A stretch of DNA of 64,000 bases from a virus: IMG/VR virus record IMGVR_UViG_3300008448_012223; one strand, written 5' to 3'. Position 1 is the first letter of the stretch. Each line of letters begins with the position of its first letter. Positions 7,250 to 42,725 of the stretch are shown here, in pieces. The translations under genes and the position numbers were made by a program. The notes below the pieces were generated by a model, which ran no database searches, had not been told where the DNA came from, and saw only the letters and a list, made by a program, of their open reading frames with translations.

Positions 7250-8398
7250 ATGAGATTACTGATATACATAGGTCAGTCTGTAACTATGAGATATCTAGTA
7301 GGTAAGGTAGAGTCTCAGGTGACGGGTACGCTATCTATCACTGATAAGATAGTGACAGTAGGGCCCGCCCGTTCTAACCTACGAGATGTACTGATTATAA
7401 TACAAGGCAATAATACTATCTACACTAGGCCAGATGGCACGCCGACCTATAACGCCCCAGTGGCGCAGACACTAACACGTCCGTTTAACTGGGCTGCTGA
7501 CGCAGAGAGGGCTGTGATAGAGTACCTAGAGCAGGGTATAGCGCCAGAGGTACAGCTTATACGCCGTACTGCACTAGTCACATACATAGATAGCATCATA
7601 GTAGAAGCAGTCAGATTAATTGATAATGACCTCATATTAGAAACAGCAGCAGGAGACGTAAGAACGGCAGTCAACGCAATACTCCAGATTACTACTGGGG
7701 TTCCATCTCGATGGAGTGATAGTATAATAAACCTGGAGGTATGGTTAGAATCTCTGGGCTCAGGTCGTTTCTACATAGATAGAATAGGAGACGCCACAAC
7801 GATAGAGGCAGATACAGTCTATACTAGTCGGGGCCGTCAGATAGTAGGTAGACTAGGGGATATAACTGTAACAATGCCAATAGAGACAGTAGAGAGTGTA
7901 AGACAAGGCGATAAGACGTGGTTTAATACCCGGCCGCCGCGGGGGCCTATAATTCCTAACTTAGGTCTACTCCGTGCTGCTACTAGGTTTATACGAAACT
8001 ACACAATAAATGAGACTATAGGCGCAGAGTTATACGATACGTATCTAATAGATGGTACTCGTATAAGCAGCCGGGCCATGTATTTACAGGATGGCTGCAT
8101 AGTATTAGCAAATGGGCCAGAGAGCTGGTGGGTCAGTATAAGAGATGTAAGGTTACTGACGGCTACTATGTTCTCTGGTCTATCAGTTAATACGCTTATA
8201 CAGCCGGGCAGGTCTACTCCACAGGCCCGTACTGTATCTATACAATCATCGATAGGCGTAATATATAGGGAAGGTGACTATAAGCCCATATTCTTCTTAT
8301 CTATAAAAGAATGGAGTAATATATTCATTCTTGCTACATACGAGAATGATAATTACCTAGTAGCTAAAGAGGAGATTGGCCGAATTGAGTACTATTAA
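7250..8398 (+). CDS. Hypothetical protein (probably virion)
   Basis: 382-aa ORF preceded by AAGGAGG. Confidence 0.55.
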   Translation: MRLLIYIGQSVTMRYLVGKVESQVTGTLSITDKIVTVGPARSNLRDVLIIIQGNNTIYTRPDGTPTYNAPVAQTLTRPFNWAADAERAVIEYLEQGIAPEVQLIRRTALVTYIDSIIVEAVRLIDNDLILETAAGDVRTAVNAILQITTGVPSRWSDSIINLEVWLESLGSGRFYIDRIGDATTIEADTVYTSRGRQIVGRLGDITVTMPIETVESVRQGDKTWFNTRPPRGPIIPNLGLLRAATRFIRNYTINETIGAELYDTYLIDGTRISSRAMYLQDGCIVLANGPESWWVSIRDVRLLTATMFSGLSVNTLIQPGRSTPQARTVSIQSSIGVIYREGDYKPIFFLSIKEWSNIFILATYENDNYLVAKEEIGRIEYY

Positions 8399-29629: not shown

Positions 29630-30119
29630 TGAATAATCTCCTGTTAATATCAGATGATAGGAAAGCCTCTAACCAGACAGGGCGGGGCTCTATAAGATAA
29701 CAGGCCCGCGCTGCGATAAGAGGATGATAGAAGTAGGGTAAGAACTCTAGCTGAGCTAGAGCCTCTATATGCTGAGGTGTAGCTATACCCCTATGATCTA
29801 GTATACCCAGGGTAGGGTAGCGCTCGTGATATATATTTAGGTTATAGTCATGCAGATACTCAGTAGTATCTAGACAGTACCAGGCAGCGCCAGAGCGGGG
29901 CCGCCCCATATCAGGTAGGTAGCCTGTTATAATCGGCGGGCTTTCATTATCCTCACGTAGATACTCTATGGCACGCCGATACATACGCCACTCCTGGGCC
30001 CAGCCCGACTGTAGTGTTATAGTAACAGCACTATAGCGGCCATCAGCGTAACGCCCTACATAATAGGGGTATATCATACAATCGCGAGCAGGTATACTCA
30101 CGTGATAATTAGTCATCAC
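29619..30119 (-). CDS. Hypothetical protein
   Basis: 166-aa ORF, overlap with the primase stop. Confidence 0.5.
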   Translation of the reverse strand: MMTNYHVSIPARDCMIYPYYVGRYADGRYSAVTITLQSGWAQEWRMYRRAIEYLREDNESPPIITGYLPDMGRPRSGAAWYCLDTTEYLHDYNLNIYHERYPTLGILDHRGIATPQHIEALAQLEFLPYFYHPLIAARACYLIEPRPVWLEAFLSSDINRRLFNVC

Positions 30120-31336
30120 GATCCGAATAGTAGAGAGGCATATTCAAGGGGCCCTAATTGATTATCTACATAAGGAGCCAGTAGCCCTAAGGGGGAATGA
30201 GTAGCAGTCAATACCCGCAATATATCTACGTGATGACTAATGTCGGGCCCCCATTGAGCTAGTAAATCATCTACGAATAATATGCGGTTAGCATTGATAG
30301 TATCAGCAGCATTAACGCGAGGCTCTGCTACCAACCACTCATTAATATCTTTATAATCAGCAACCATATACGTCATAAGCTCAGCTAATGGTAAGTTAAC
30401 CTGTAGCTGAACTAGTTGAGGTATGATACGCACCCAGCTCTTATATACACCGGCATGAGTAGGATGATCATCGCTATACTTATCTGAGTCGAATATAAAT
30501 GTGATACGACGGAAGGGCTTGAACTTACTGGTGTGACATAATAGATACTCCAGACCCAATAGTCCCACTACAGGTAAACCACGACCTATTAGTGATGTGG
30601 CATCAGGCGGGCCCTCAACTATATATAGCTCGCGAGCTGGGTGCTTACTATACTCCTTAAGACAATGTTCTAGATAGAGATAGCGCTTACTATTAATAGC
30701 GGCCCGCGTATCCTTATAGCGGGGGGCCCTCTCACTACTACCTATATAGCGACCAACCATATGGACTAGATGGCCTCGTGTATCTCGTATAGGGAATATA
30801 ATGCGTTCCCTATAGTAATCCTCGCCGTCCTCCTTAATCAGACCCTCGCGGGCTAATGCCTCATGATCTATATCGAATTGACGTAGACCACTAGGAGGAG
30901 CATACCCTATACCAATGCTACGAGCTAGATCGAGGGACCAGCCCCGCCGCAGTATATAATCCTGAGCAGCAGGCGTAGTATCAAAATAATAATGATAGGC
31001 CTCTAGCGCGCTCTCTAGTACTATACTGCGAGCATCCATAACCTCGCGGGCCTGACGTATACCAGCGCGGGCCTCTAACTGCTGCATAGCCCCAGCATAA
31101 TCAAGCTTAGTATGCCAGCGCCAGGCATTGACTAGACCCATACCTGCGTTCAACTCACAACTAGTCCTCCAGCACTTCATATAGTGCGGATACACGCTCA
31201 GCTTACCGCGGCCCCCACAAGCAGGGCAATCATTAGTACCATGCCGTAGATTTAGTAGCTCTGGTATAGTTAGCCGCTCCATTATCAGTTGCTCATTCTC
31301 TCTCGTCACCGCTCTCCGTATATTGGATGAATGCAC
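30116..31336 (-). CDS. DnaG-type DNA primase
   Basis: Zn finger CPACGG...CWRTSC, RIIFPIRD, TOPRIM IVEGPPDA and IFDSD. Confidence 0.85.
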   Translation of the reverse strand: MHSSNIRRAVTRENEQLIMERLTIPELLNLRHGTNDCPACGGRGKLSVYPHYMKCWRTSCELNAGMGLVNAWRWHTKLDYAGAMQQLEARAGIRQAREVMDARSIVLESALEAYHYYFDTTPAAQDYILRRGWSLDLARSIGIGYAPPSGLRQFDIDHEALAREGLIKEDGEDYYRERIIFPIRDTRGHLVHMVGRYIGSSERAPRYKDTRAAINSKRYLYLEHCLKEYSKHPARELYIVEGPPDATSLIGRGLPVVGLLGLEYLLCHTSKFKPFRRITFIFDSDKYSDDHPTHAGVYKSWVRIIPQLVQLQVNLPLAELMTYMVADYKDINEWLVAEPRVNAADTINANRILFVDDLLAQWGPDISHHVDILRVLTATHSPLGLLAPYVDNQLGPLEYASLLFGS

Positions 31337-31681
31337 TATAATAACTAAGCTTAAACTTTAACACTAATACATATCGCCTGTTAATGGCAATATGCTCGAG
31401 ATAAGTGATGTCACTTACCCGTGGCCCGTTCCATAAGAATATCTCGGATAGTTTTTTCAACAGGTACCTTAATATACTACTACCGCCAACGTCTAGGGCC
31501 ACCCCACGTCATCCATACTACTGTTCTTAAGCGATACCTAACGAATTTCTAATTGACTAACATCAAAATCACCGCCATTTGGCAGAGTTTTCCCTGAAAA
31601 AAGATGCTGTTGCTTGCGAAGCCATGATATTAGATGATTGTGTTAATTTTAAACGCTTTAGTCTGAGTCCATATTTTAATT

Positions 31682-32172
31682 TCAATTAAATGTAAAAAGT
31701 TTGTCGATAAAACTTGATATAGTTTCTGCTATTTCCTCTGTTTTATCACGAATAAAGGTAATCTCTTCCTGTTTGTCAGAGATTCCAAAACTTGAGTAGT
31801 ATCCATCATCTGGATCATCATACGCTCTACATATAGCTATTTCTTTTATTTTTCCTGTTCTTAAATCAAATATCGTACCAGTTACTCTGGTTTTTGGTAT
31901 TAAGCTAAAGCTTGGTACAAAACCACAAAAAACCTTGACATGGGCTACCGTCTGACAATCTAAAAGAACCTTAGCATTACCTGTTAGGTAAATTTGTTGT
32001 TCAAACTTTAGTTCCCATTCTGACCAAAGAAAGTTTTTAAACGACCAACTGTTCCAATCAGAATTGTCGTTATATTCTTTGTGACAAAAAGCCGCAATTT
32101 TTTTAAGTATATCTATTTTTTTGGTCCTTCTATAGCTTTTTGCCTTTTAAAAAACTCTTCTGCTGTTGTCAT
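31682..32172 (-). pseudogene. Frameshifted (A7 run) paralog of the adjacent 32169-32615 gene
   Basis: MTTAEEFFKRQKAIEGPKK* then the -1 frame continues IDILKKIAAFCHKEY...FTFN*; not in the ORF track. Confidence 0.65.
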
Positions 32173-32615
32173 AGTGTCACCTCGGTTTGTATTTCAGTTT
32201 CGATAAATTCATAAATATCAATCATAATTCGTGTTCCTTTTTTACGCCATAGATTTAATTCTCCATGTTTAGCAGTCCCACTTTTCTTGAATGAGATTTT
32301 ACTGTTTTTTCTATCATTTATCCATACAAAAAAACTTCCTTCCCAATCTAAATTAGAAATAGTAGATCGACCTTCTATGTAATTTCTAAAATCGCTAGGT
32401 GAACCGTCACTACTATAAAAGTTGTTACTATTGATACTTATATCTATTTGTATTCCATTTATAGAATTAAGAATAGGGCGATACCCGTAAATCATGTCTT
32501 GAGTTCTGCCTAAAGATGTAAATGACCACTTTAGCTCTGGGTAAGTTTTTTGGCAGAAATTGAATATTTTTTGGGCTGTTTCTTGTTTGTTCATTATATG
32601 AAGATCAGAATCCAT
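32169..32615 (-). CDS. AT-rich hypothetical protein
   Basis: 148-aa ORF, QKIFNFCQKTY motif, ATGA overlap with the next gene. Confidence 0.55.
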   Translation of the reverse strand: MDSDLHIMNKQETAQKIFNFCQKTYPELKWSFTSLGRTQDMIYGYRPILNSINGIQIDISINSNNFYSSDGSPSDFRNYIEGRSTISNLDWEGSFFVWINDRKNSKISFKKSGTAKHGELNLWRKKGTRIMIDIYEFIETEIQTEVTL

Positions 32616-32647: not shown

Positions 32648-32812
32648 TTATGCAAAAAATTCCAGTCTGTAATAAAACAGGGCAAGTCTGAAAGAATTAC
32701 AATCATAAAACTTGCGTATTAAGTTGTCTGTTCCAATGTAGGGTTCAGGCATAAACATAGAGGCCTTCAGCTTATTGTGCAGAGATCAATCACTACAATT
32801 AATAGTCTTCAT
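32648..32812 (-). pseudogene. Array unit 40, Trp codon changed to TGA, no acidic tail
   Basis: MKTINCSD*SLHNKLKAS...FYYRLEFFA*. Confidence 0.55.
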
Positions 32813-32930
32813 CGAAATAATTGTATAGCATTCTATAGTAAAATTGATCTATAAGAGTAATAAGTATAAAGGCCTTGACCTTATTGTTGAGAGTCCAGTC
32901 GAAAATCCAATAGTTAGAAATAGTCTTCAT
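32799..32930 (-). CDS. Array unit 39 (43 aa)
   Basis: MKTISNYW...FYYRMLYNYFDEDY*. Confidence 0.6.
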   Translation of the reverse strand: MKTISNYWIFDWTLNNKVKAFILITLIDQFYYRMLYNYFDEDY

Positions 32931-33088
32931 TCAAACAAACCCTTATGATTCAATCTAGAGTAAAACGAACCGACATGATTCCTACTCATTAAATAAGACC
33001 GGGTTACTAAATAACTTGCAGGCTCAATAAGCATAGAGGCCTTAAGCTTATTGTGTAGAGACCAATCATTAATCATAATCATCTTCAT
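32927..33088 (-). CDS. Array unit 38 (53 aa, ATGA-coupled)
   Basis: MKMIMINDWSLHNKLKAS...FYSRLNHKGLFE*. Confidence 0.6.
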   Translation of the reverse strand: MKMIMINDWSLHNKLKASMLIEPASYLVTRSYLMSRNHVGSFYSRLNHKGLFE

Positions 33089-33267
33089 TGAAACTATCTT
33101 CATTGAAATAACCGTCTTTATGTATAATGTTATACTTACTCATTCTCATCTAGAATGTGTTAGACAATACACTTACCAGTCTATAGTAAAACTGGTCGAC
33201 AGAGGTAATAAGTATAGAGGCCTTCAGCTTATTGTGCAGAATCCAAATATTACAATTTAGTCTTCAT
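33069..33267 (-). pseudogene. Array unit 37, two frameshifts
   Basis: MKTKL*; homologous body and tail are in other frames. Confidence 0.55.
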
Positions 33268-33439
33268 CGAAATAATTGTATAGCAGTCTATAGTAAAATT
33301 GATCTATAAAAGTAATAAGTATAGAGGCCTTGAGCTTATTGTCGAGAGTCCAGTGGTAAAGCAAACTCAATTTGAAATAATCATTATTACACAGAACCCA
33401 ATTATTATATAAAATCCAATAAGTAGAAATTCTCTTCAT
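33257..33439 (-). CDS. Array unit 36
   Basis: MKRIST...FYYRLLYNYFDED*. Confidence 0.6.
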   Translation of the reverse strand: MKRISTYWILYNNWVLCNNDYFKLSLLYHWTLDNKLKASILITFIDQFYYRLLYNYFDED

Positions 33440-33603
33440 AAAAACAAACTCTTATAATTCAATCTAGAGTAAAACGAACCGACATAATACCTGCCCATTA
33501 AATAAGACTCGGTTACTAAGTAATTTGCCCCAACGGAAAACTCAATAAGCATAGAGGCCTCAAGCTTATTGTGCAAAGACCAATAATCATTAATCATCTT
33601 CAT
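33436..33603 (-). CDS. Array unit 35 (55 aa, ATGA-coupled)
   Basis: MKMINDYWSLHNKLEAS...FYSRLNYKSLFL*. Confidence 0.6.
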   Translation of the reverse strand: MKMINDYWSLHNKLEASMLIEFSVGANYLVTESYLMGRYYVGSFYSRLNYKSLFL

Positions 33604-33868
33604 CTAAATAACCGTCCTCATATTCATCGAATTGCCCATCCTCAAGATAATAATCGCCCTCATCTAGAATATCATCCTTATCTAGGATGTTTTCTAACAT
33701 ATTTACCAGTCTACAGTAAAACCGGAAGATAGAGCCGCAACACTCGCTTAGTTTAGGAGTATAAATCTCGAGACCCATCTCTTCATAATAATGAAACAAG
33801 CGCAAGGCATTGAGATAATCATTATTCAAAATCCAAGGTAACAGACAATCGTTAGAAATATTCTTCAT
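33590..33868 (-). CDS. Array unit 34 (expanded acidic tail)
   Basis: MKNISND...DKDDILDEGDYYLEDGQFDEYEDGYLDEDD*. Confidence 0.65.
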   Translation of the reverse strand: MKNISNDCLLPWILNNDYLNALRLFHYYEEMGLEIYTPKLSECCGSIFRFYCRLVNMLENILDKDDILDEGDYYLEDGQFDEYEDGYLDEDD

Positions 33869-34046
33869 TGAAGTAATCGCTCTCATCTAGAGCGTTATAT
33901 AATCTAGAGTAAAACAAACCGATGTAGTACCTGCTTATTAAATAAAACCTAGGCACTAAGCCGGTTGCCCTAGCGAAAGGCTTAATAAGCATAGAGGCTC
34001 TAAGGTTATTGTGTAGAGTCCACTCGTCACATATAATAGTCTTCAT
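33852..34046 (-). CDS. Array unit 33
   Basis: MKTIIC...DESDYFNEEYF*. Confidence 0.65.
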   Translation of the reverse strand: MKTIICDEWTLHNNLRASMLIKPFARATGLVPRFYLISRYYIGLFYSRLYNALDESDYFNEEYF

Positions 34047-34251
34047 AAAAACATACTCCTAGCCAGTTACCCAATCTGAAGTAAAACAAAGATGTCGAAG
34101 CAGACACCCAAAAAATACTGTAATGCATAGCAAGGTTAAAATAATTATGATTATAATACTTTCTTACATTTATATCAGTGGAAGGCTCTCTACTAGATAT
34201 AGATGCCATAAGCTTATTATTAAGCATAGGCCAATAATCAATCATCTTCAT
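34027..34251 (-). CDS. Array unit 32
   Basis: MKMIDYW...FYEDYYM*. Confidence 0.6.
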   Translation of the reverse strand: MKMIDYWPMLNNKLMASISSREPSTDINVRKYYNHNYFNLAMHYSIFWVSASTSLFYFRLGNWLGVCFYEDYYM

Positions 34252-34459
34252 CGAAATAACCACCCTCATCTAGAACGTTATATAACATATTTGCCAGTCT
34301 ATGATAAAACCTGGCGGGCCCTCTATATACAATAAAGATGAAGCTATAGTATAAACTTTCACCATTTGCTAATTTTAGCTTGTCAGTAATAGTAAGTACA
34401 CCCCCTTTATTGCTATGAATATAATGACAAAACAGGTTGTTACAATTAACCATCTTCAT
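34238..34459 (-). CDS. Array unit 31
   Basis: MKMVNC...DEGGYFDEDD*. Confidence 0.65.
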   Translation of the reverse strand: MKMVNCNNLFCHYIHSNKGGVLTITDKLKLANGESLYYSFIFIVYRGPARFYHRLANMLYNVLDEGGYFDEDD

Positions 34460-34658
34460 TGAAGTAGTCATCCTCATTTAGAATATCATTATCATCTAGA
34501 GCGTTATATATAAAAGCCACTAGTCTATAGTAAAACTCGCCGGTAGGGTTAATATGTGTGTGGCCCTTCAACTTATCACACACATTCCAGTAGTAAAATA
34601 AGGTAATGTCATACAAACAATCGTTAGAAATATTCTTTATTGAAGTAATCACTCTCAT
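34446..34658 (-). CDS. Array unit 30 (upstream ATG available; usual ATG mutated to ATA)
   Basis: MRVITSIKNISND...EDDYFNEDG*. Confidence 0.6.
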   Translation of the reverse strand: MRVITSIKNISNDCLYDITLFYYWNVCDKLKGHTHINPTGEFYYRLVAFIYNALDDNDILNEDDYFNEDG

Positions 34659-34812
34659 CTAGAGCGTTATATATAAAAACCACTAGTCTATAGTAAAACA
34701 AGTTGATAGCGTTAATAGGTATAGAGGCTTTATGCTTATTATACACATTCCAATTGTACAGAATCAAGTTATAAAACAAAGCAAGCCCGAGATCATTATC
34801 AATCATCTTCAT
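34624..34812 (-). CDS. Array unit 29
   Basis: MKMIDND...DESDYFNKEYF*. Confidence 0.65.
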   Translation of the reverse strand: MKMIDNDLGLALFYNLILYNWNVYNKHKASIPINAINLFYYRLVVFIYNALDESDYFNKEYF

Positions 34813-34972
34813 AGAGTGTATACTTATATAGAATATTGTATATCACAGCTGTTAGTTTATAGTAAAACCAGTCGATAGAGCACCTGCTAAATTTAGGAAT
34901 ATGAGTCTCGATGGTCACATCCTCATAATAATAAAACAAGTAATTAAGCCTGTTACAACTAATCCATCTCAT
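34799..34972 (-). CDS. Array unit 28
   Basis: MRWISC...LYEDD*. Confidence 0.65.
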   Translation of the reverse strand: MRWISCNRLNYLFYYYEDVTIETHIPKFSRCSIDWFYYKLTAVIYNILYKYTLYEDD

Positions 34973-35198
34973 TGAAATAACCGTCCTCATCTAGAATGCT
35001 ATATAACACATCTTCTAATCTATGATGAAACAGATTGATAGAACCATGGAACCTGTCTAATTCAGGTATATAAGTTATAAGCCACATACCCTCATAACAT
35101 ATTAATAATCCGTGATGGTCAGCTGGCAGATCAGTAATAGATATAGGTATATTCAACTTATTACGTGGGGCTCAATTGTTACAATTAATTATCTTCAT
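34959..35198 (-). pseudogene. Array unit 27, Trp codon changed to TGA
   Basis: MKIINCNN*APRNKLNIP... stays in frame to ...DEDGYFNEMD*. Confidence 0.6.
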
Positions 35199-35352
35199 CG
35201 AAATAACCGTTCTCATCTAGAATGTTATATAACTCATCTCCTATATAAAACAGGTTGATAGAACCATGGTACCTGAATTAGTCAGGTACAGGAGTTGTAA
35301 AGACACATACCCTCATACAATAAAACAGGGCGTCACAATTAACCATCTTCAT
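35185..35352 (-). pseudogene. Array unit 26, internal TAA
   Basis: MKMVNCDAL...VPD* then in-frame ...YNILDENGYFDEDN*. Confidence 0.6.
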
Positions 35353-35512
35353 TGAAATAATCATCCTCATCTAGAATGTTATATAACTCATCTCCTAATC
35401 TATGATAAAACAGGTTGATAGAACCATGGAACCTGTCTAATTCAGGTATATAAGTTATAAGCCATATACCCTCATGACAATAAAACGGGGCGTCACAATT
35501 AATCACCTTCAT
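35339..35512 (-). CDS. Array unit 25
   Basis: MKVINC...LDEDDYFNEDG*. Confidence 0.65.
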   Translation of the reverse strand: MKVINCDAPFYCHEGIWLITYIPELDRFHGSINLFYHRLGDELYNILDEDDYFNEDG

Positions 35513-35714
35513 CGAAATAATCGTCCTCATCTAGAATGCTATATAAATGTTCTAATCTATGATAAAACAGGTTGATAGAGCCAGAGAACTTACTTAATTC
35601 AAGAGTATAGGTATCGAGATCCATGTTCTCATAATAAAACAAGGCAATATAATAATCGAGCTTAACTAATAAGTCACTTATCTGAATGTGCTCGTCACAG
35701 TTAATCACTCTCAT
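35499..35714 (-). CDS. Array unit 24
   Basis: MRVINC...LDEDDYFDEGD*. Confidence 0.65.
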   Translation of the reverse strand: MRVINCDEHIQISDLLVKLDYYIALFYYENMDLDTYTLELSKFSGSINLFYHRLEHLYSILDEDDYFDEGD

Positions 35715-35904
35715 TGAAGTAATCGTCCTCTCTATTAAGAAAGCTATATATTACAAGTTCTACTAATCTATAATAAAAAAGTCTTCCAGGACTATAAGCA
35801 AAATACAATTTGATTAATAATTTACGTAGGTCAACGGGCAGATCAGTAATAGGTATATTCAAGTTATTACGCGGAGCCCAGTCATTACAATTAATCATCT
35901 TCAT
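35701..35904 (-). CDS. Array unit 23
   Basis: MKMINC...EDDYFNESD*. Confidence 0.65.
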   Translation of the reverse strand: MKMINCNDWAPRNNLNIPITDLPVDLRKLLIKLYFAYSPGRLFYYRLVELVIYSFLNREDDYFNESD

Positions 35905-36148
35905 CGAAATAATCCCCCTCCCCTAGAAAGTCATATAACAAACATGCTAGTTTATAATAAAACAAGTCGATAGGAACATGTAACTTGTCCAATTCAGGGA
36001 TATAGGCCCCGAGACCCATGCTTTCATGGTAGTAACGATAGAACCATAGATAGTATAGATTATCACCATTTGGTAAAATCGGCGGGTCAATATATATATT
36101 CAGTTTACTACTATGAGGCGCCCAATCGTTACAATTAATCATCTTCAT
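35891..36148 (-). CDS. Array unit 22
   Basis: MKMINC...GDYFDEDD*. Confidence 0.65.
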   Translation of the reverse strand: MKMINCNDWAPHSSKLNIYIDPPILPNGDNLYYLWFYRYYHESMGLGAYIPELDKLHVPIDLFYYKLACLLYDFLGEGDYFDEDD

Positions 36149-36323
36149 AGAAATAATGGTAGGTTATAGTAGGCTCAGATAGGTTATGGTAAACCCAAGC
36201 GACTCCTCTGACATAAAAGTTATCGTATAAACTATTATGGTTTGCTATCAACGGGTTAGTAATAGGTGTAGATACACCTAACGTATTACGTGGGGCCCAG
36301 TCATTACAGTTAATTATCTTCAT
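36135..36323 (-). CDS. Array unit 21
   Basis: MKIINC...YFYEDD*. Confidence 0.65.
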   Translation of the reverse strand: MKIINCNDWAPRNTLGVSTPITNPLIANHNSLYDNFYVRGVAWVYHNLSEPTITYHYFYEDD

Positions 36324-36327
36324 ATAA

Positions 36328-36528
36328 TTAATTGTCCTCATCTAGAATGTTATACAACACTACTCCCGCTAGTCTATGGTAAAACCTGGCGGGCCCCCCA
36401 GCGTTATAAGTATGAAAGTTATAGTTATAGAAACTGTAGTATAAACTATCACTGTCTACTAAAATCGACGGGTCAGTAATATATTTATTCAGTTTACTAC
36501 GTGAAGGCCAACCGTTAATCATATTCAT
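36328..36528 (-). CDS. Array unit 20
   Basis: MNMINGW...YNILDEDN*. Confidence 0.65.
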   Translation of the reverse strand: MNMINGWPSRSKLNKYITDPSILVDSDSLYYSFYNYNFHTYNAGGPARFYHRLAGVVLYNILDEDN

Positions 36529-36703
36529 AAAAATATAACAATCTATGGTAAAACCAAGCAGGCCCTCCACCATGATAAAGATAGAAGTTATAGAATAACT
36601 TATTATTATCTGCTATTGGAAGAACAATAGTAGGTACAGGTGCATTCATACGGAGCCCATTTAAATTACGCGGAGTCCAACCATTACAATCAATCTTCTT
36701 CAT
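36515..36703 (-). CDS. Array unit 19
   Basis: MKKIDC...FYHRL..FYEYD*. Confidence 0.65.
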   Translation of the reverse strand: MKKIDCNGWTPRNLNGLRMNAPVPTIVLPIADNNKLFYNFYLYHGGGPAWFYHRLLYFYEYD

Positions 36704-36707
36704 ATAA

Positions 36708-36902
36708 TTAATTGTCCTCATCTAGAATGTTATATGATGCTACTCTTTCCAGTATATAATAAAACAGCACCCCATCATAAAAGCTATAGTATAAATTATC
36801 AACGCTCGCTAGAGGCGGATTAGTAATAGGTATGTATGAAGTCCACGCATGCGGGTCTCTTCTATTACGAGGAGCCCAATTGTCAGAATTAATCTTCTTC
36901 AT
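36708..36902 (-). CDS. Array unit 18
   Basis: MKKINSD...YNILDEDN*. Confidence 0.65.
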   Translation of the reverse strand: MKKINSDNWAPRNRRDPHAWTSYIPITNPPLASVDNLYYSFYDGVLFYYILERVASYNILDEDN

Positions 36903-37090
36903 AGAAATAATGGTAGGGCCACTATAGTATAAAACATAGCAAGCCCCCCATCATCATTATAAAGATAAAAGCTATAGTATAAATTATCAACGCTCACTAG
37001 AGGTGGATTAGTGATAGTGAGTACGTATGGAGCCACATGCGGGTCTCTTCTATTACGAGGAACCCAATTGTCAGAATTAATCTTCTTCAT
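36899..37090 (-). CDS. Array unit 17, altered tail, ATGA-coupled
   Basis: MKKINSD...LPLFL*. Confidence 0.55.
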   Translation of the reverse strand: MKKINSDNWVPRNRRDPHVAPYVLTITNPPLVSVDNLYYSFYLYNDDGGLAMFYTIVALPLFL

Positions 37091-37286
37091 CGAAATAATC
37101 ATTCTCATATAGAACGTTATATAATACTATCCCCGACAGTCTATAGTAAAGTATAGCAAGTCCTCCAGAATTATAAAGATAGAAGCTATAGTATAAATTA
37201 TTGATATTTGCTACTGGCGGGGCAGTGATAGGTACAGGTACATTCCACTCATACGGGGCCCAGCAATTTGGATTAATTGTTTTCAT
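37077..37286 (-). CDS. Array unit 16
   Basis: MKTINPNC...ENDYFDEED*. Confidence 0.65.
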   Translation of the reverse strand: MKTINPNCWAPYEWNVPVPITAPPVANINNLYYSFYLYNSGGLAILYYRLSGIVLYNVLYENDYFDEED

Positions 37287-37325
37287 AGAGATAGTTATCC
37301 TGACCTAAAATATCAATATACCAGT

Positions 37326-37517
37326 CTATGTTAAAGCGCGCTGATAAGAGCGCAGTTTATAGGCCAGTCTATAGTAAAATTGGAAGATAGAGCCACAGCA
37401 CTTGTTTAATTCAGGAGTATAAATCTCGAGACCCAGCTCTTCATAATAATAAAACAAGTACAAAGCATTGAAATAATCATTATTCAAAATCCAATTGTTA
37501 CAACTAATCGCTCTCAT
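37326..37517 (-). CDS. Array unit 15, tail frameshifted
   Basis: ...YQRALT*; DWYIDILGQDNYLYENN is out of frame. Confidence 0.55.
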   Translation of the reverse strand: MRAISCNNWILNNDYFNALYLFYYYEELGLEIYTPELNKCCGSIFQFYYRLAYKLRSYQRALT

Positions 37518-37677
37518 CGAAATAATCATCCTCATATAGAATATCGTATATCACAGTTCTTAGTCTATAGTAAAACCCGCCGGTAGAGATAATAAGTATA
37601 CGGGCCTTTAGCTTATTCTTGATAGTCCAGTTGTAAAACAAAGCAAGTTTGAAAACATTACAATTAATCATCTTCAT
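37504..37677 (-). CDS. Array unit 14 (57 aa, below track cutoff)
   Basis: MKMINCNVFKLAL...FYYRL...YEDDYFDESD*. Confidence 0.65.
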   Translation of the reverse strand: MKMINCNVFKLALFYNWTIKNKLKARILIISTGGFYYRLRTVIYDILYEDDYFDESD

Positions 37678-37825
37678 AGAATATATATTTATCTACTATG
37701 TGTATATACAGTCTATAGTAAAATCGGTCGACAGCATAAAACCTTAATTCAGGAGTATAGGTGAAACCCGCACGCTCACAATAATAAAAAAAGTAATTAA
37801 GCTTGTTACAACTAATCGCTCTCAT
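37664..37825 (-). pseudogene. Array unit 13, frameshifted
   Basis: MRAISC...TPELR then out of frame; FYYRL and tail are in another frame. Confidence 0.6.
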
Positions 37826-38039
37826 TGAAGTAATTGCCCCCCAAGCTTAAGGCCTCATTCAGAAAGCCATATATCACAAATTCTCCCAGTCTATAATAAA
37901 ACCAGGCGAGTCTCCCAGGACTATAAGCAAAATACAATTTGCTTAATAATACCTGTAGGTCAACAGGCGGGTCAGTAATAGGTATAGGTATATTCAACTG
38001 ATTACACGGGGCCCAATTATTACAACTAATCATCTTCAT
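37812..38039 (-). CDS. Array unit 12
   Basis: MKMISC...NYFNESD*. Confidence 0.65.
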   Translation of the reverse strand: MKMISCNNWAPCNQLNIPIPITDPPVDLQVLLSKLYFAYSPGRLAWFYYRLGEFVIYGFLNEALSLGGNYFNESD

Positions 38040-38202
38040 CGAAATAATCATCCCCATATAGAATGTCGTATATCACAGCTGTTAGTTTATAGTGAAGCCG
38101 GTCGATAGAGCACCTGCTAAATTCAGGAATATGACTCTCGATGGTCACATCCTCATAATAAAAAAACAAGTACTTAAGCTTATTACAACTAATCGCTCTC
38201 AT
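38026..38202 (-). CDS. Array unit 11
   Basis: MRAISC...DDYFDEDD*. Confidence 0.65.
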   Translation of the reverse strand: MRAISCNKLKYLFFYYEDVTIESHIPEFSRCSIDRLHYKLTAVIYDILYGDDYFDEDD

Positions 38203-38210
38203 TGAAGTAA

Positions 38211-38393
38211 TCACCCCCTATTCAGAAAGCCGTATATCCCAAATTCTTCCATTCTATAATAAAACCAGGCGACTTCTCGACTATAAGCAAAATACACCTG
38301 TAGGTCAACAGGCGGGTCAGTAATAGGTATAGATATCATAGGTAGATTTAACTTATGACGTGGGGTCCAATTGTTACAATTAATTATCTTCAT
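38211..38393 (-). CDS. Array unit 10, tail truncated by +1 in a G5 run
   Basis: ...FLNRG*; DYFNESD is out of frame. Confidence 0.55.
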   Translation of the reverse strand: MKIINCNNWTPRHKLNLPMISIPITDPPVDLQVYFAYSREVAWFYYRMEEFGIYGFLNRG

Positions 38394-38562
38394 CGAAATA
38401 ATCGTCCTCATCTAGAGTGTTATAATAAAACACGCTTACCAGTCTATAATAAAACCGGTCGATAGTTACAAGACCTGTGTTATCGTAATAATAAGTTCTA
38501 ATAGGCCTAGGTATATTCAACTTATTACGTGGGGCCCATTTGTCACTATCATCTATCTTCAT
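38380..38562 (-). CDS. Array unit 9
   Basis: MKIDDS...LDEDDYFDEDN*. Confidence 0.65.
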   Translation of the reverse strand: MKIDDSDKWAPRNKLNIPRPIRTYYYDNTGLVTIDRFYYRLVSVFYYNTLDEDDYFDEDN

Positions 38563-38785
38563 AGAAATTGTCCTTAGCTAACAATGTCAGTCTATAATAA
38601 AACAACTTGATAGAAGCATAAAACTTATTTAATTCAGGTAGATAGACCCAGAGACCCACACTCATACTTTCGTAGTGGTAATGATAAAAGCTATAGTATA
38701 AACTACCACTGTTTGCTAAAACCGGCGGATCAGCAGCAGGTATATTCAACTTATTAAGTGAAGGCCAGTCGTTAATAATCTTCAT
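38549..38785 (-). CDS. Array unit 8
   Basis: MKIINDW...FYYRL...DNFYEDR*. Confidence 0.65.
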   Translation of the reverse strand: MKIINDWPSLNKLNIPAADPPVLANSGSLYYSFYHYHYESMSVGLWVYLPELNKFYASIKLFYYRLTLLAKDNFYEDR

Positions 38786-38989
38786 AGAAATAATTCCCCT
38801 CCTCTAGAAAGTCATATAACAAAAAATACTACCCCACGACAGACTATAGTAAAATATAGCAAGTCCTTTAGAATTATAAAGATAGAAGCTATAGTATAAA
38901 TTATTGATATTTGCTACTGGCGGAGCGGTGATAAATACAGGTAAACCCCATTTATACAGAGCCCAGCAATTTGGATTAATTATTTTCAT
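38772..38989 (-). pseudogene. Array unit 7, frameshifted near a T6 run
   Basis: Stops at 38804; acidic tail LEEGNYFYEDY is in another frame. Confidence 0.6.
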
Positions 38990-39254
38990 TGAGATAGTTA
39001 TCCTCACCTAAAATATCAATGTACCAGTCTATGTTAGAGCGCTGATAAAGCAGCAATTTACAATAAAACCAGTCGACAGAAACATATAACCTGTCTAATT
39101 CAAGAGTATAGGCCCCAATTATACTTTCATAGAACCATGTATAATATAAATTATCGCCGTTTGCTAGAATCGCTGGGTCAGTAATAGATTTAGATATAGA
39201 CATATCTGGACCCCAATTACTACTAAGCCAACCGTTACAATTAATAATCTTCAT
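38976..39254 (-). CDS. Array unit 6
   Basis: MKIINC...GEDNYLNENN*. Confidence 0.65.
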   Translation of the reverse strand: MKIINCNGWLSSNWGPDMSISKSITDPAILANGDNLYYTWFYESIIGAYTLELDRLYVSVDWFYCKLLLYQRSNIDWYIDILGEDNYLNENN

Positions 39255-39447
39255 AGAGATAATCATCCTCATCTAATGATAGTTTACGGTAAAACCAAGC
39301 AAGCCCTTGATTATTATAAGTATGAAACTTATAGTATAAACTATAACCATCTGTTATTAGAGGATCAGTAATAGGTATAAGTTCACCCCAATATGGAGCC
39401 CATCTAGTATTGCGAAGAGCCCAACCATTATAATTAATCATCTTCAT
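39241..39447 (-). CDS. Array unit 5
   Basis: MKMINY...DEDDYLYEDY*. Confidence 0.65.
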   Translation of the reverse strand: MKMINYNGWALRNTRWAPYWGELIPITDPLITDGYSLYYKFHTYNNQGLAWFYRKLSLDEDDYLYEDY

Positions 39448-39652
39448 AGAAGTAATTGTCCTCATCTAGAATGTTATATACATTTCCTGCTAGTCTATCG
39501 TAAAACTTGGCGGGCCCCCCAGCATTATAAACGTAGAAGCTATAATATAAAATATCACTGTTTGTTAAAATTGGCAGGTTAGTAATAGGTATAGGTGCGT
39601 CCCATAAATAATGATTATGGGGTGCCCAACCATTACAATTAATCTTCTTCAT
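39434..39652 (-). CDS. Array unit 4
   Basis: MKKINC...NILDEDNYFYEDD*. Confidence 0.65.
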   Translation of the reverse strand: MKKINCNGWAPHNHYLWDAPIPITNLPILTNSDILYYSFYVYNAGGPAKFYDRLAGNVYNILDEDNYFYEDD

Positions 39653-39845
39653 AGAGATAATCATTCTCATCTGGCGATAGTTTACGATAAAACCAAGCAA
39701 GCCCTTCATTATTATAAGTATGAAACTTATAGTATAAACTATAACCACTTGTTATCAGAGGATTAGTAATAGGTACAAGTTCACCCCAATATGGAGCCCA
39801 TCTAGTATTACGAGGAGCCCAACCATTAGAATTAATAACCTTCAT
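39639..39845 (-). CDS. Array unit 3
   Basis: MKVINS...DYLYEED*; 14-nt overlap. Confidence 0.65.
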   Translation of the reverse strand: MKVINSNGWAPRNTRWAPYWGELVPITNPLITSGYSLYYKFHTYNNEGLAWFYRKLSPDENDYLYEED

Positions 39846-40068
39846 AGAAATAGTCACCCTCATATAGAATATTATATACATTTCCTGCCAGTCTATCGTA
39901 AAACTTGGAGGGCCCCCCAACATTATAACCGTAGAAGCTATAGTATACAGTATCACCGTTTGCTAAAATTGGCGGGTTAGTAATAGGTATAGGCGCGTCC
40001 CATTCATAATACGGCGCCCCATAATCGTTATGGGGCGCCCAATAGTTTGGATTAATCTTTTTCAACAA
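39832..40068 (-). CDS. Array unit 2
   Basis: TTG start with AAGGA; ...FYDRL...YFYEGY*. Confidence 0.65.
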   Translation of the reverse strand: MLKKINPNYWAPHNDYGAPYYEWDAPIPITNPPILANGDTVYYSFYGYNVGGPSKFYDRLAGNVYNILYEGDYFYEGY

Positions 40069-40087
40069 ATGTTTCCTTTTGGTACTA

Positions 40088-40297
40088 TTAATTATCTTTA
40101 TAGAAATTGTCCTTAGCGAACAGTGTCAGTATATAATAAAACATCCCAGCATTATAAACGTAGAACCTATAGTATAAAGTATCACCGTTTGCTATTGGCG
40201 GGTTAGTAATAGGTATAGGTGCGTCCCATAGATAATCATTATGAGGCGCCCCATAATGATTATGGGGCGCCCAATAATTTGTACTAATCTCTTTCAT
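40088..40297 (-). CDS. Array unit 1
   Basis: SD GAGGAG upstream; MKEISTNYWAPH...DNFYKDN*. Confidence 0.7.
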   Translation of the reverse strand: MKEISTNYWAPHNHYGAPHNDYLWDAPIPITNPPIANGDTLYYRFYVYNAGMFYYILTLFAKDNFYKDN

Positions 40298-40312
40298 CAG
40301 GTGCCTCCTCTT

Positions 40313-41265: not shown

Positions 41266-41550
41266 TCACCCATTGTTATCAAATAGATTTCTGTAGGCCT
41301 CGTATACGGCATCAGGTGCCTCCTCGTCATTGTATTGTTGAGCCGACTTGAATGTAGATAAGATGCTCAATAGATTAGGGCGGTAGTTAGGGATAATACA
41401 ATAACCACCATTAATCCATCTAATACACGCGAGACGACGGGTGCCATGAAACCAGCATAAGATCTCATCGCCAAGGGCCGTATGAGATTGATATGGTTCG
41501 CGGAAGTCAGATATACGCCCCCGCAAGTATTTAAGTAAATCTAACATCAT
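41266..41550 (-). CDS. Hypothetical protein
   Basis: 94-aa ORF with ATGA overlap to the helicase. Confidence 0.5.
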   Translation of the reverse strand: MMLDLLKYLRGRISDFREPYQSHTALGDEILCWFHGTRRLACIRWINGGYCIIPNYRPNLLSILSTFKSAQQYNDEEAPDAVYEAYRNLFDNNG

Positions 41551-42725
41551 GATTTAGTACCTAACCGATTATAGAATTTAAGGATAGAGGGCTCTATATA
41601 GCAACTATCACAGAAGGCGGATCGTGTACCTATCAGGCGGAGGCCGCTATAGTGACGTACACGACTAAGAATAGTATAGAGGCCCCCGCTGAGCCAACGT
41701 AAATTACTGAGACGAGCCTGTACGTTATTAAGCGTGAGCCCCTGACTACGATGGACAGTAAGGGCATAGCCCAGTCTAACGGGTAAGTAGTGGCAGCGGC
41801 CCAATAGTTTGTTAGTGCCGAGCTCTTTATTATCTCGTGTCACGTATTCAATGATAGTCTCCTGACCGGTACGTTCTACTGTCACCAGTATAGTATTAGT
41901 CATGAGCTCCTTGACTATGGCGATATCGCCATTAGCGTATGTAGGTAGTCTATTACGAAGTAGAATAACGCGCGCGCCTTTCCTTAGCTCTACTGATTCA
42001 GGTATTTGGCCCCACTCAGGAGCGGTCCTCCCCCCCTTCGGTATAACGTAATTCTTAGTATAGAGGCGACTAGGCCCTTCTAGTTGTGCTAGGTGCAGGG
42101 CGTTATATCTATCTACACTATCATTAGTAGGCAGGATAGTAGTACCTGCGTAGTTATCTTCGAGCTGATTGACAAACTCTACATTATCTATGAACCAATC
42201 TACTGCTTCGTGAGGCCGCCCTTCTCTTACGCTAGTCAGCGCCTGTATAAAGCCGGGGTCATTCTGGCGCCTGACCTCTCGTAAGTACTGTATATCGAAG
42301 CTCTGTAGGCAGTCTGTTTGATAGACTGGCGTGCTAGTGACCTTTTTATCTGGTACTAGTGGTAACTGACAGAAGTCTCCCACGAGTAGGAGATTCATAT
42401 TTATGTTACTCTTCTCCATTACGTGATGGATAATAGTTAGTTGAGGGCCATGTAACATACTGATCTCGTCTATGACTAGAGTATCAAATGCATTAGATAT
42501 AGCCTGTAGCTGAGTGGTCAGCTTTCCACTAGAAGCGGAGCGTAATAGACTAGTAGTGTCGAAGAACTGGAGGGCCGCGTGAATAGTAGTACCACCTGCA
42601 TTAATAGCGCTCACGCCGGTACTACTAGTGATGAGGGCCTTACTCAAACTCTGTATGTATGTTGTCTTACCACTCCCTGCTGGACCCAGCAGCATCTGAT
42701 AGGGGCCGTTGAACGTTATCTGCAT
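41547..42725 (-). CDS. PIF1/RecD-like SF1B helicase
   Basis: GPAGSGKT, VIDEISML, VGDFCQLP, VRRQND, ALTVHRSQGLT, YTILSRV. Confidence 0.9.
   Translation of the reverse strand: MQITFNGPYQMLLGPAGSGKTTYIQSLSKALITSSTGVSAINAGGTTIHAALQFFDTTSLLRSASSGKLTTQLQAISNAFDTLVIDEISMLHGPQLTIIHHVMEKSNINMNLLLVGDFCQLPLVPDKKVTSTPVYQTDCLQSFDIQYLREVRRQNDPGFIQALTSVREGRPHEAVDWFIDNVEFVNQLEDNYAGTTILPTNDSVDRYNALHLAQLEGPSRLYTKNYVIPKGGRTAPEWGQIPESVELRKGARVILLRNRLPTYANGDIAIVKELMTNTILVTVERTGQETIIEYVTRDNKELGTNKLLGRCHYLPVRLGYALTVHRSQGLTLNNVQARLSNLRWLSGGLYTILSRVRHYSGLRLIGTRSAFCDSCYIEPSILKFYNRLGTKS

Follow-up and report, generated by a model that had tools for sequence, protein, structure and literature searches.

We describe a tandem array of small overlapping genes in IMGVR_UViG_3300008448_012223, an IMG/VR virus record whose analysed stretch of 64,000 nucleotides (nt) is called the window here, and the conserved junction by which each gene (unit) of the array passes into the next. 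By its sequence, the source is a Ma-LMM01-like Microcystis phage of the genus Fukuivirus; the flanks of the array are about 94% identical to Ma-LMM01, MaMV-DC, MaMV-DH01 and three further MaMV isolates. In the reading that we regard as fairly probable, the junction is where successive, tandemly amplified small phage genes of the family phrog_4393 overlap, end to start, and its strong conservation would come from two abutting protein constraints with 14 nt in common. One would be the acidic aromatic C-terminal tail L-D-E-D-D-Y-F-x-E-D-D of a unit, written in one frame, and the other the N-terminal head M-K-M-I-N-C-N-N-W... of the following unit, written in the +1 frame. Each unit is predicted to be a separate small protein.

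Geometry of the junction and selection on its two frames

The following features of the window, all on the minus strand, were used to describe the array and its junctions.

32648..40312, minus strand: tandem array of 38 intact small open reading frames (ORFs; 43-107 codons from stop to stop) and decayed units, phrog_4393 (from stop-to-stop ORF tiling, the family hidden Markov model (HMM) and GC content)
38380..38414, minus strand: representative canonical junction (direct reading; column statistics over 25 window and 179 unique junctions)
35891..35904, minus strand: exact-consensus 14-nt overlap ATGAAGATGATTAA between units 36148..35891 and 35904..35701 (sequence, motif search)
36899..36902, minus strand: ATGA overlap after a frame-shifted unit without acidic tail (...ALPLFL*) (ORF tiling, sequence)
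33436..33439, minus strand: ATGA overlap after an altered-tail unit (...YKSLFL*) (ORF tiling, sequence)
32927..32930, minus strand: ATGA overlap after an altered-tail unit (...HKGLFE*) (ORF tiling, sequence)
34624..34658, minus strand: variant junction with ATA (34640-34638) at the usual start and an in-frame ATG upstream (34658-34656) (sequence)

The motif recurring between the units is ...CTAGATGAGGAYGATTAYTTCNATGAAGATGATTAA... A search of the window with TAYTTCNATGARGATRATTAA, in which up to 2 mismatches were allowed, gave 23 matches, all on the minus strand between 32799 and 40108, where shuffled sequences led us to expect 0.00. An alignment-free count of recurring 12-mers was 3-5 times higher at the junction than in the unit interior, with a second, smaller peak at the FYYRL codons. 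These results support the first-pass annotation of this DNA, which had described a dual-frame junction, and both of the readings that it gave, LDEDDYFxEDD* and, in another frame, MRMIISMKMIN, were confirmed on the sequence. At the representative junction, the head frame carries TAG (38414-38412), and an optional upstream ATG (38411-38409) and GAGG (38409-38406) precede the selected ATG (38393-38391); the TAA of the upstream unit (38382-38380) completes the 14-nt overlap ATGAAGATAATTAA.

The window array was compared with the arrays of five isolate genomes (L001-L005, of which L001 is Ma-LMM01) and 13 IMG/VR loci (L006-L018). At 24 of the 37 junctions of the window, the distance from an in-frame ATG to the end of the upstream stop codon is exactly 14 nt (position -14), and 3 of the 37 are ATGA overlaps. 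The 14-nt overlap, already pointed out by the first-pass annotation, is the dominant geometry also over the 19 arrays, where it was found at 66% of 414 adjacent and 69% of 261 unique junctions. Apart from -14, an ATG was present among the 414 junctions at -8 (25%), -32 (24%), -26 (13%) and -4 (8%), and 10% had no ATG nearby. The frame step from unit to unit was +1 at 80% of these junctions, +2 at 15% and 0 at 4%; the window array also shifts by +1 at most of its junctions. Co-directional neighbours overlap or are separated by at most about 10 nt, as is characteristic of coupled gene pairs, and the public annotation of Ma-LMM01, which was made independently, gives 14-nt overlaps as well.

Selection was assessed from the ratio of nonsynonymous to synonymous divergence (dN/dS). 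In close unit pairs, the tail segment, i.e., the 21 nt upstream of the main ATG, gave a dN/dS of 0.25 in the tail frame against 0.97 in the head frame, and codons 6-13 of the head of the next unit gave 0.33 in their own frame against 0.96 in both others. The junction is thus the meeting point of two selected protein ends, which have only 14 nt in common. Conservation in both frames, for which an alignment of all junctions had been proposed, was therefore found, and the junction is the most conserved part of the unit rather than being conserved to the same degree as the rest. In the unit interiors, dN/dS was 0.6-0.8 in the coding frame and about the same in the other frames, both for close pairs and for deeper type-A pairs, i.e., there was no frame-specific purifying signal. 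Nevertheless, the interior reading frames stay open; constraint falls mainly on the N-terminal head and the acidic tail. We do not claim diversifying selection from the interior values, as young paralogues can give a dN/dS of 0.6-0.8.

Start signals and translation across the junction

One start codon is under selection, namely the ATG at -14. The ATGA at this position was invariant in 25 of 25 canonical window junctions. When junctions were matched with a pattern admitting T or C at the wobble position of the -14 ATG, the T that creates this ATG was found in 147 of 147; the share of NAC among the Asn, Asp and Tyr codons of unit interiors is 25-39%, and at the position of ATG#2 GAT and GAC were about equally frequent. 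The flanking ATGs (-32, -26 and -8) each occur in 13-25% of junctions, with a GAT/GAC wobble that reflects ordinary codon usage. Extra in-frame ATGs were present at or below the frequency predicted from codon usage, and they appear because Asp is spelled GAT before G; the frame upstream of the -14 ATG is under no protein constraint (dN/dS 0.97). The proposal that several in-frame ATGs form a selected redundancy is not supported by this evidence.

Because the tail is spelled with GAT-GAN, the +2 frame contains TGA (also within ATGA), and the head frame usually has a TAG just upstream. Therefore, units that have slipped in frame still stop beside the next start, and this explains the ATGA cases: most frame-shifted units run into such an other-frame stop within the junction, close to the start. 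The three altered-tail units named earlier (17, 35 and 38) indeed end in an ATGA overlap, at 36902-36899, 33439-33436 and 32930-32927.

In the case of unit 30, it had been claimed that the usual ATG was lost and that the spare upstream ATG at 34658 was visibly used instead. The loss and the upstream ATG are both real in this unit (34658..34446), with ATA located at 34640-34638, 3 nt off the position of 34637 given before; the upstream unit ends there with ...NKEYF* (34626-34624). However, the orthologues of unit 30 in L007 and L012 retain ATG, and by this comparison unit 30 is a recent start loss caused by a G-to-A change, which does not in itself support use of the upstream ATG. It could be explained equally well as a unit heading to decay.

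The GAGGA sequence, regarded before as a Shine-Dalgarno (SD)-like motif, is present in most window junctions, with G, A, G, G and A found at the five positions in 21, 20, 20, 18 and 21 of 25 junctions, respectively. The exact GAGG was found in 87 of the 179 unique canonical junctions (49%), where it ends 12 nt before the ATG, and GAGG, GGAG or AGGA at a gap of 4-10 nt in only 13 of the 179, which does not indicate SD-led initiation. About a third of the other genes of the window carry an SD-like motif, located 3-10 nt upstream. Thus, the motif itself was confirmed and its SD duty was not. At the GAGG codon, GAG was used in 68% of junctions versus 47% in unit interiors, and this favoured codon may make a minor SD contribution. 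Mostly, GAGGA and the spare ATGs are by-products of Asp and Glu codons. The extra ATGs, the TGA and TAG stops in other frames and GAGGA would then be, for the most part, side effects of the GAT-GAN Asp/Glu tail, which would still make the boundary tolerant to frameshifts. This corrects an attractive over-reading of the junction: from the "triple duty" ascribed to it, the coding of tail and head remains, and the SD and spare-ATG functions are largely unsupported.

We therefore regard as unlikely the explanation in which the junction is a selected three-function module that codes for tail and head, supplies a ribosome-binding site with redundant starts, and so keeps any recombinant, duplicated or deleted unit translated. 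It would account for the stops of frame-shifted units at the ATGA of the next start, for the GAG preference at the GAGG position, for the low share (10%) of junctions without an ATG near the stop and for the shared blocks, described below, that end at junctions. Against it stand the presence of GAGG in only 87 of 179 junctions at a distance of 12 nt, the 13 of 179 with a suitably spaced motif, the infrequent upstream ATGs with ordinary wobble and a dN/dS of 0.97 in their frame, and the recent start loss in unit 30.

How the ribosome would pass from unit to unit is suggested by the position of the stop. In our preferred reading of overlapping gene ends, a ribosome stopping at UAA(U) would re-initiate locally at the -14 AUG, with the stop located 11 nt downstream, and direct initiation on weakly structured, A/U-rich RNA would probably add to this. 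Termination-reinitiation acts locally, over a short range, and can operate at short overlaps (PMC10666635). In 157 of 179 junctions (88%) the base after the stop is U, and UAAU or UGAU stops were found in 144 of 179. Translational coupling across the junction is plausible from this arrangement, and the junction is probably an ordinary ribosome hand-off. In Ma-LMM01, gp137-157 all belong to the middle class B5, with log2 values of about 7.3-9.8 at 3 and 6 h post infection (PMC5780444 supplement); these homologues of the array genes are transcribed together with the replication genes of the middle class and at similar levels (PMC5780444 supplement).

A polyprotein or polyproteins produced by programmed frameshifting or read-through at the junctions would also connect the units. 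At 80% of junctions a +1 shift would lead into the next unit, whose head frame stays open as far back as 32 nt from the stop. Both features would suit such a mechanism, but the remaining 20% of junctions would need another shift or none. Moreover, a slippery heptamer X_XXY_YYZ was found in only 3 of 179 junctions, which does not point to frameshifting; the stops are mostly UAAU or UGAU, i.e., strong termination contexts, and the start ATG is strictly selected. We consider this explanation highly improbable.

Four junction folds gave z values of 0.27, -1.29, 0.05 and 1.78 relative to shuffled sequences, and no RNA structure masking the start was found in them. The 50-nt windows around the starts folded with -5.3 kcal/mol versus -6.2 kcal/mol for random windows of the array (p = 0.29). 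Coupling by unmasking is not indicated because no RNA structure hides the start. A sigma-70-like 10-of-12 match, TTTATA-N16-TATAAT, recurs within units of the NWAPRN/LYYSFY type, over the LYYSFYxYN codons. It was found on the minus strand at the following positions.

40178-40151, minus strand: TTTATA-N16-TATAAT match
39738-39711, minus strand: TTTATA-N16-TATAAT match
39551-39524, minus strand: TTTATA-N16-TATAAT match
39340-39313, minus strand: TTTATA-N16-TATAAT match
38900-38873, minus strand: TTTATA-N16-TATAAT match
37197-37170, minus strand: TTTATA-N16-TATAAT match
36983-36956, minus strand: TTTATA-N16-TATAAT match

In the region as a whole, 71 promoter-like sites were counted versus 46.2 +/- 6.7 in shuffles. 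The same hexamers are predicted middle promoters of Ma-LMM01 gp150 and gp156, and such promoters are predicted before several of the array genes (Morimoto et al.). The array may thus have internal promoters.

Several of these observations weigh against the reading of the junction as overlapping gene ends joined by re-initiation. Known coupled pairs belong mostly to the -4, -1 and -8 classes, which are shorter than the 14-nt overlap; with an unstructured start region, independent initiation would suffice; and, as promoter-like sites recur inside units, the array is perhaps not one transcript. Since a single ancestral junction gave rise to all of them, the junctions do not provide independent counts, and gene conversion could have raised the conservation. 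Finally, the Phe codon located three nt before the start (e.g., 38398-38396) is TTC in 82% of junctions versus 23% in interiors (TTT 77%), a preference that neither reading frame explains and that hints at an additional constraint at the nucleotide level.

It is possible, though we give it clearly less weight than overlapping, coupled gene ends, that there is no coupling at all. Each unit would then have its own initiation on accessible A/U-rich RNA, perhaps transcribed from several internal promoters, and the overlap would be no more than genome compaction passed on by duplication. The unstructured junction RNA agrees with this, as do the TTTATA-N16-TATAAT matches inside units, the excess of promoter-like sites and the predicted middle promoters; other genes of the phage also overlap, by 14, 16, 8, 23, 7, 11 and 19 nt when the first possible start is taken. 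However, the distance from start to stop is fixed at -14 or at other short overlaps in about 260 unique junctions, between interiors that have diverged to below 50% amino-acid identity. Such fixed spacing exceeds the needs of compaction, although common descent contributes to it.

Distribution of the array and exchange of units

The same array family with the same junction was found in 5 of 5 isolates and in 13 of 13 IMG/VR loci, on one strand in each. The longer arrays have about 21-39 units, and the size varies between relatives whose flanks are 94% identical. The nearest virus record contains 35 phrog_4393 matches in one cluster, and the junction pattern was found in none of 185,579 prokaryotic species genomes (one genome per species). 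In these collections, the family appears only in Ma-LMM01-like (Fukuivirus) Microcystis phages. In the window, the array matches the same Microcystis phages only in patches, at 72-77% identity, and little of it is common to relatives at >=90% identity, in contrast to 94% in the flanks.

Blocks shared between different arrays were defined by an identity of at least 92%. Of their 5' ends, 38 of 54 fall into the 45 nt that precede a stop (1-45 nt), and of their 3' ends, 26 of 52 fall between -15 and +29 nt relative to a stop; about 22% was expected for either end. Units behave as cassettes in this comparison because the shared blocks begin and end at junctions, and the result fits an exchange of units through the shared boundary. 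As the blocks common to arrays end there, units could be gained, lost and swapped as whole cassettes. The clustering of block ends bears out one part of the earlier claim of a junction made for recombination; the results do not show that the boundary was selected for exchange.

In pairs with close interiors, synonymous divergence was 0.21 in tails and 0.19 in heads versus 0.10 in interiors. Since the divergence of tail and head is about twice that of the interior, junctions often have a history unlike that of the unit they flank. This result, together with the clustered block ends and the TTC preference unexplained by coding, could indicate a DNA-level effect, in which a recombination hot spot, or some other DNA or RNA element, mediates concerted evolution or gene conversion. 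The frame-specific dN/dS values of 0.25 and 0.33 versus about 0.96 elsewhere argue instead for selection at the protein level, and the junction showed no Rfam match, no significant fold and no inverted repeat of the attC kind. We consider this explanation of the conservation rather improbable, slightly more so than the three-function module. An integron-like cassette array was also considered and rejected: the junctions fold no better than shuffles and match no Rfam family, and no integrase gene adjoins the array in the window.

Unit proteins, related systems and genomic setting

Six units, standing for the different interior types, were compared with PHROGs, and all matched phrog_4393 with E values from 1e-28 to 1.3e-5. 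The entry gives no function and, although it represents the same family, is silent on the tandem, overlapping architecture. The unit proteins contain 11% Tyr, are rich in Leu and Asn, and have a median isoelectric point of 5.1. Neither the units nor the small flanking ORFs had matches in Pfam, and the junction had none in Rfam. A profile search of 1.84 billion representative proteins returned 51 matches, essentially all of them small family members; two weak matches to Ig-like repeat proteins were judged spurious and repeat-driven. A word-index search for homologues returned only 27 small hypothetical proteins. Two AlphaFold2 runs, with alignments of 35 and 146 sequences, gave low mean pLDDT (predicted local distance difference test) values of 53.1 and 53.7 and contradictory models, a beta hairpin and helices. 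Look-alikes in the ESM Atlas (starch-binding fragments, 0.87) were sub-threshold and were taken as a lead only. No description of the array or the junction was found in a literature search, which did not cover the original Ma-LMM01 genome paper.

A longer form of the unit, of 85-96 amino acids (aa), in which a PITDPP/LYY block is combined with an IPELDK...FYY(R/K)L block, shows good conservation between contigs. From this form, the shorter unit types seem to derive by deletion. Examples of the longer form are located as follows.

35894-36148: longer unit form, window
7646-7933: longer unit form, L009
10082-10369: longer unit form, L012
12721-13008: longer unit form, L013
10733-11020: longer unit form, L015

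Known termination-reinitiation pairs, which are typical of phage operons, include ATGA, TAATG and -8 overlaps, as well as the 34-nt overlap of the coat and lysis genes of phage fr (PMC10666635, PMC6728339). As in these pairs, the array genes are co-directional and the downstream start lies within the last codons of the upstream ORF, near its stop. Unlike them, the array has an overlap of mostly 14 nt instead of 4, 1 or 8, repeated about 40 times between paralogues. The closest functional analogy to the array would be the internal-protein (IP) locus of T-even phages, which codes for diverse injected anti-restriction proteins that share only an N-terminal capsid-targeting sequence (PMC3012670). 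Both consist of small, very diverse proteins with a short conserved N-terminal segment, made in a defence-rich host. The array proteins differ from the IP proteins in having no sequence relationship to them (no Pfam matches), a conserved acidic C-terminal tail and 21-39 copies. A capsid-targeting function of the T4 type was rejected, as only 3 of 146 units have the [LIV]xE protease-site motif within their first 20 residues. A further comparison is the gene-amplification accordion, as in the case of poxvirus K3L. Another accordion case is the amplification of T4 tifA against toxIN (10.1101/2022.04.14.488369). The array resembles accordions in the change of tandem copy number of a small viral gene and in rapid turnover between close relatives, but its copies are old, have diverged into subtypes and are stably present in every relative examined.

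Tentatively, and with more doubt than for uncoupled initiation, we propose that the array is a phage library of about 20-40 fast-diversifying mini-proteins in which only the ends are selected, as common handles. The interiors would give specificity, e.g., as decoys or inhibitors directed against the large defence repertoire of Microcystis. The boundary would serve as the translational hand-off and as homology for swapping, duplicating or dropping cassettes between co-infecting phages. If true, such a library would correspond, in a virus, to contingency or antigenic-variation loci, with tail and head as candidate common handles and the interiors as candidate specificity regions. Among the cultured viruses of toxic Microcystis blooms, those of the Ma-LMM01 type are the main ones. 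The array takes up about 4% of the genome, and no other stretch examined here was as variable. A dual-coding boundary with a single selected ATG, selection focused on the ends and cassette-wise exchange turn the "hypothetical proteins gp137-157" into a defined experimental target.

The limits of the array are wider than the 32799-39845 annotated before, which was correct as to the array itself; it extends upstream to 40312 and downstream to 32648. About three decayed units are interspersed among the 38 intact minus-strand units. An HMM built from the units matched 39 frames, every one within 32648..40312, and the GC content is 33-36% inside the array versus about 45% in the flanks. The array is situated between the primase gene and a block ending with the RecD-like helicase gene, all on the minus strand. 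Ma-LMM01 has the same arrangement, in which gp137-gp157 are the counterparts of the array genes.

30116..31336, minus strand: DNA primase homologue flanking the downstream end of the array (syntenic with Ma-LMM01 gp134 and MaMV primase genes)
41547..42725, minus strand: RecD-like helicase homologue upstream of the array, same orientation (synteny with Ma-LMM01 gp160)
35172..35338, minus strand: decayed unit (the frame from the junction start at 35352 stops after 24 codons; gap in the ORF chain; within a 160-nt tandem duplication)

In Ma-LMM01, a transposase and a resolvase-type gene (L001 3713-5471, gp135-gp136) separate the primase gene from the array. In their place, the window (31337-32615) has about 830 nt without a long ORF and an ORF of 148 aa (32169-32615), which had no family match. 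A strong terminator-like hairpin of 9 pairs, 7 of them G-C, followed by a T-rich tail, is located upstream of the array on the minus strand (41226-41203), between the gp159 and gp158 homologues. Because of this hairpin, the array and two small ORFs may form a separate transcription unit. Two recent tandem duplications were seen within the array. The first (39228-40010) has a period of 398 nt, i.e., two units, and a match of 89%; the second (35181-35583) has a period of 160 nt, 2.6 copies and a match of 85%, and takes in the decayed unit.

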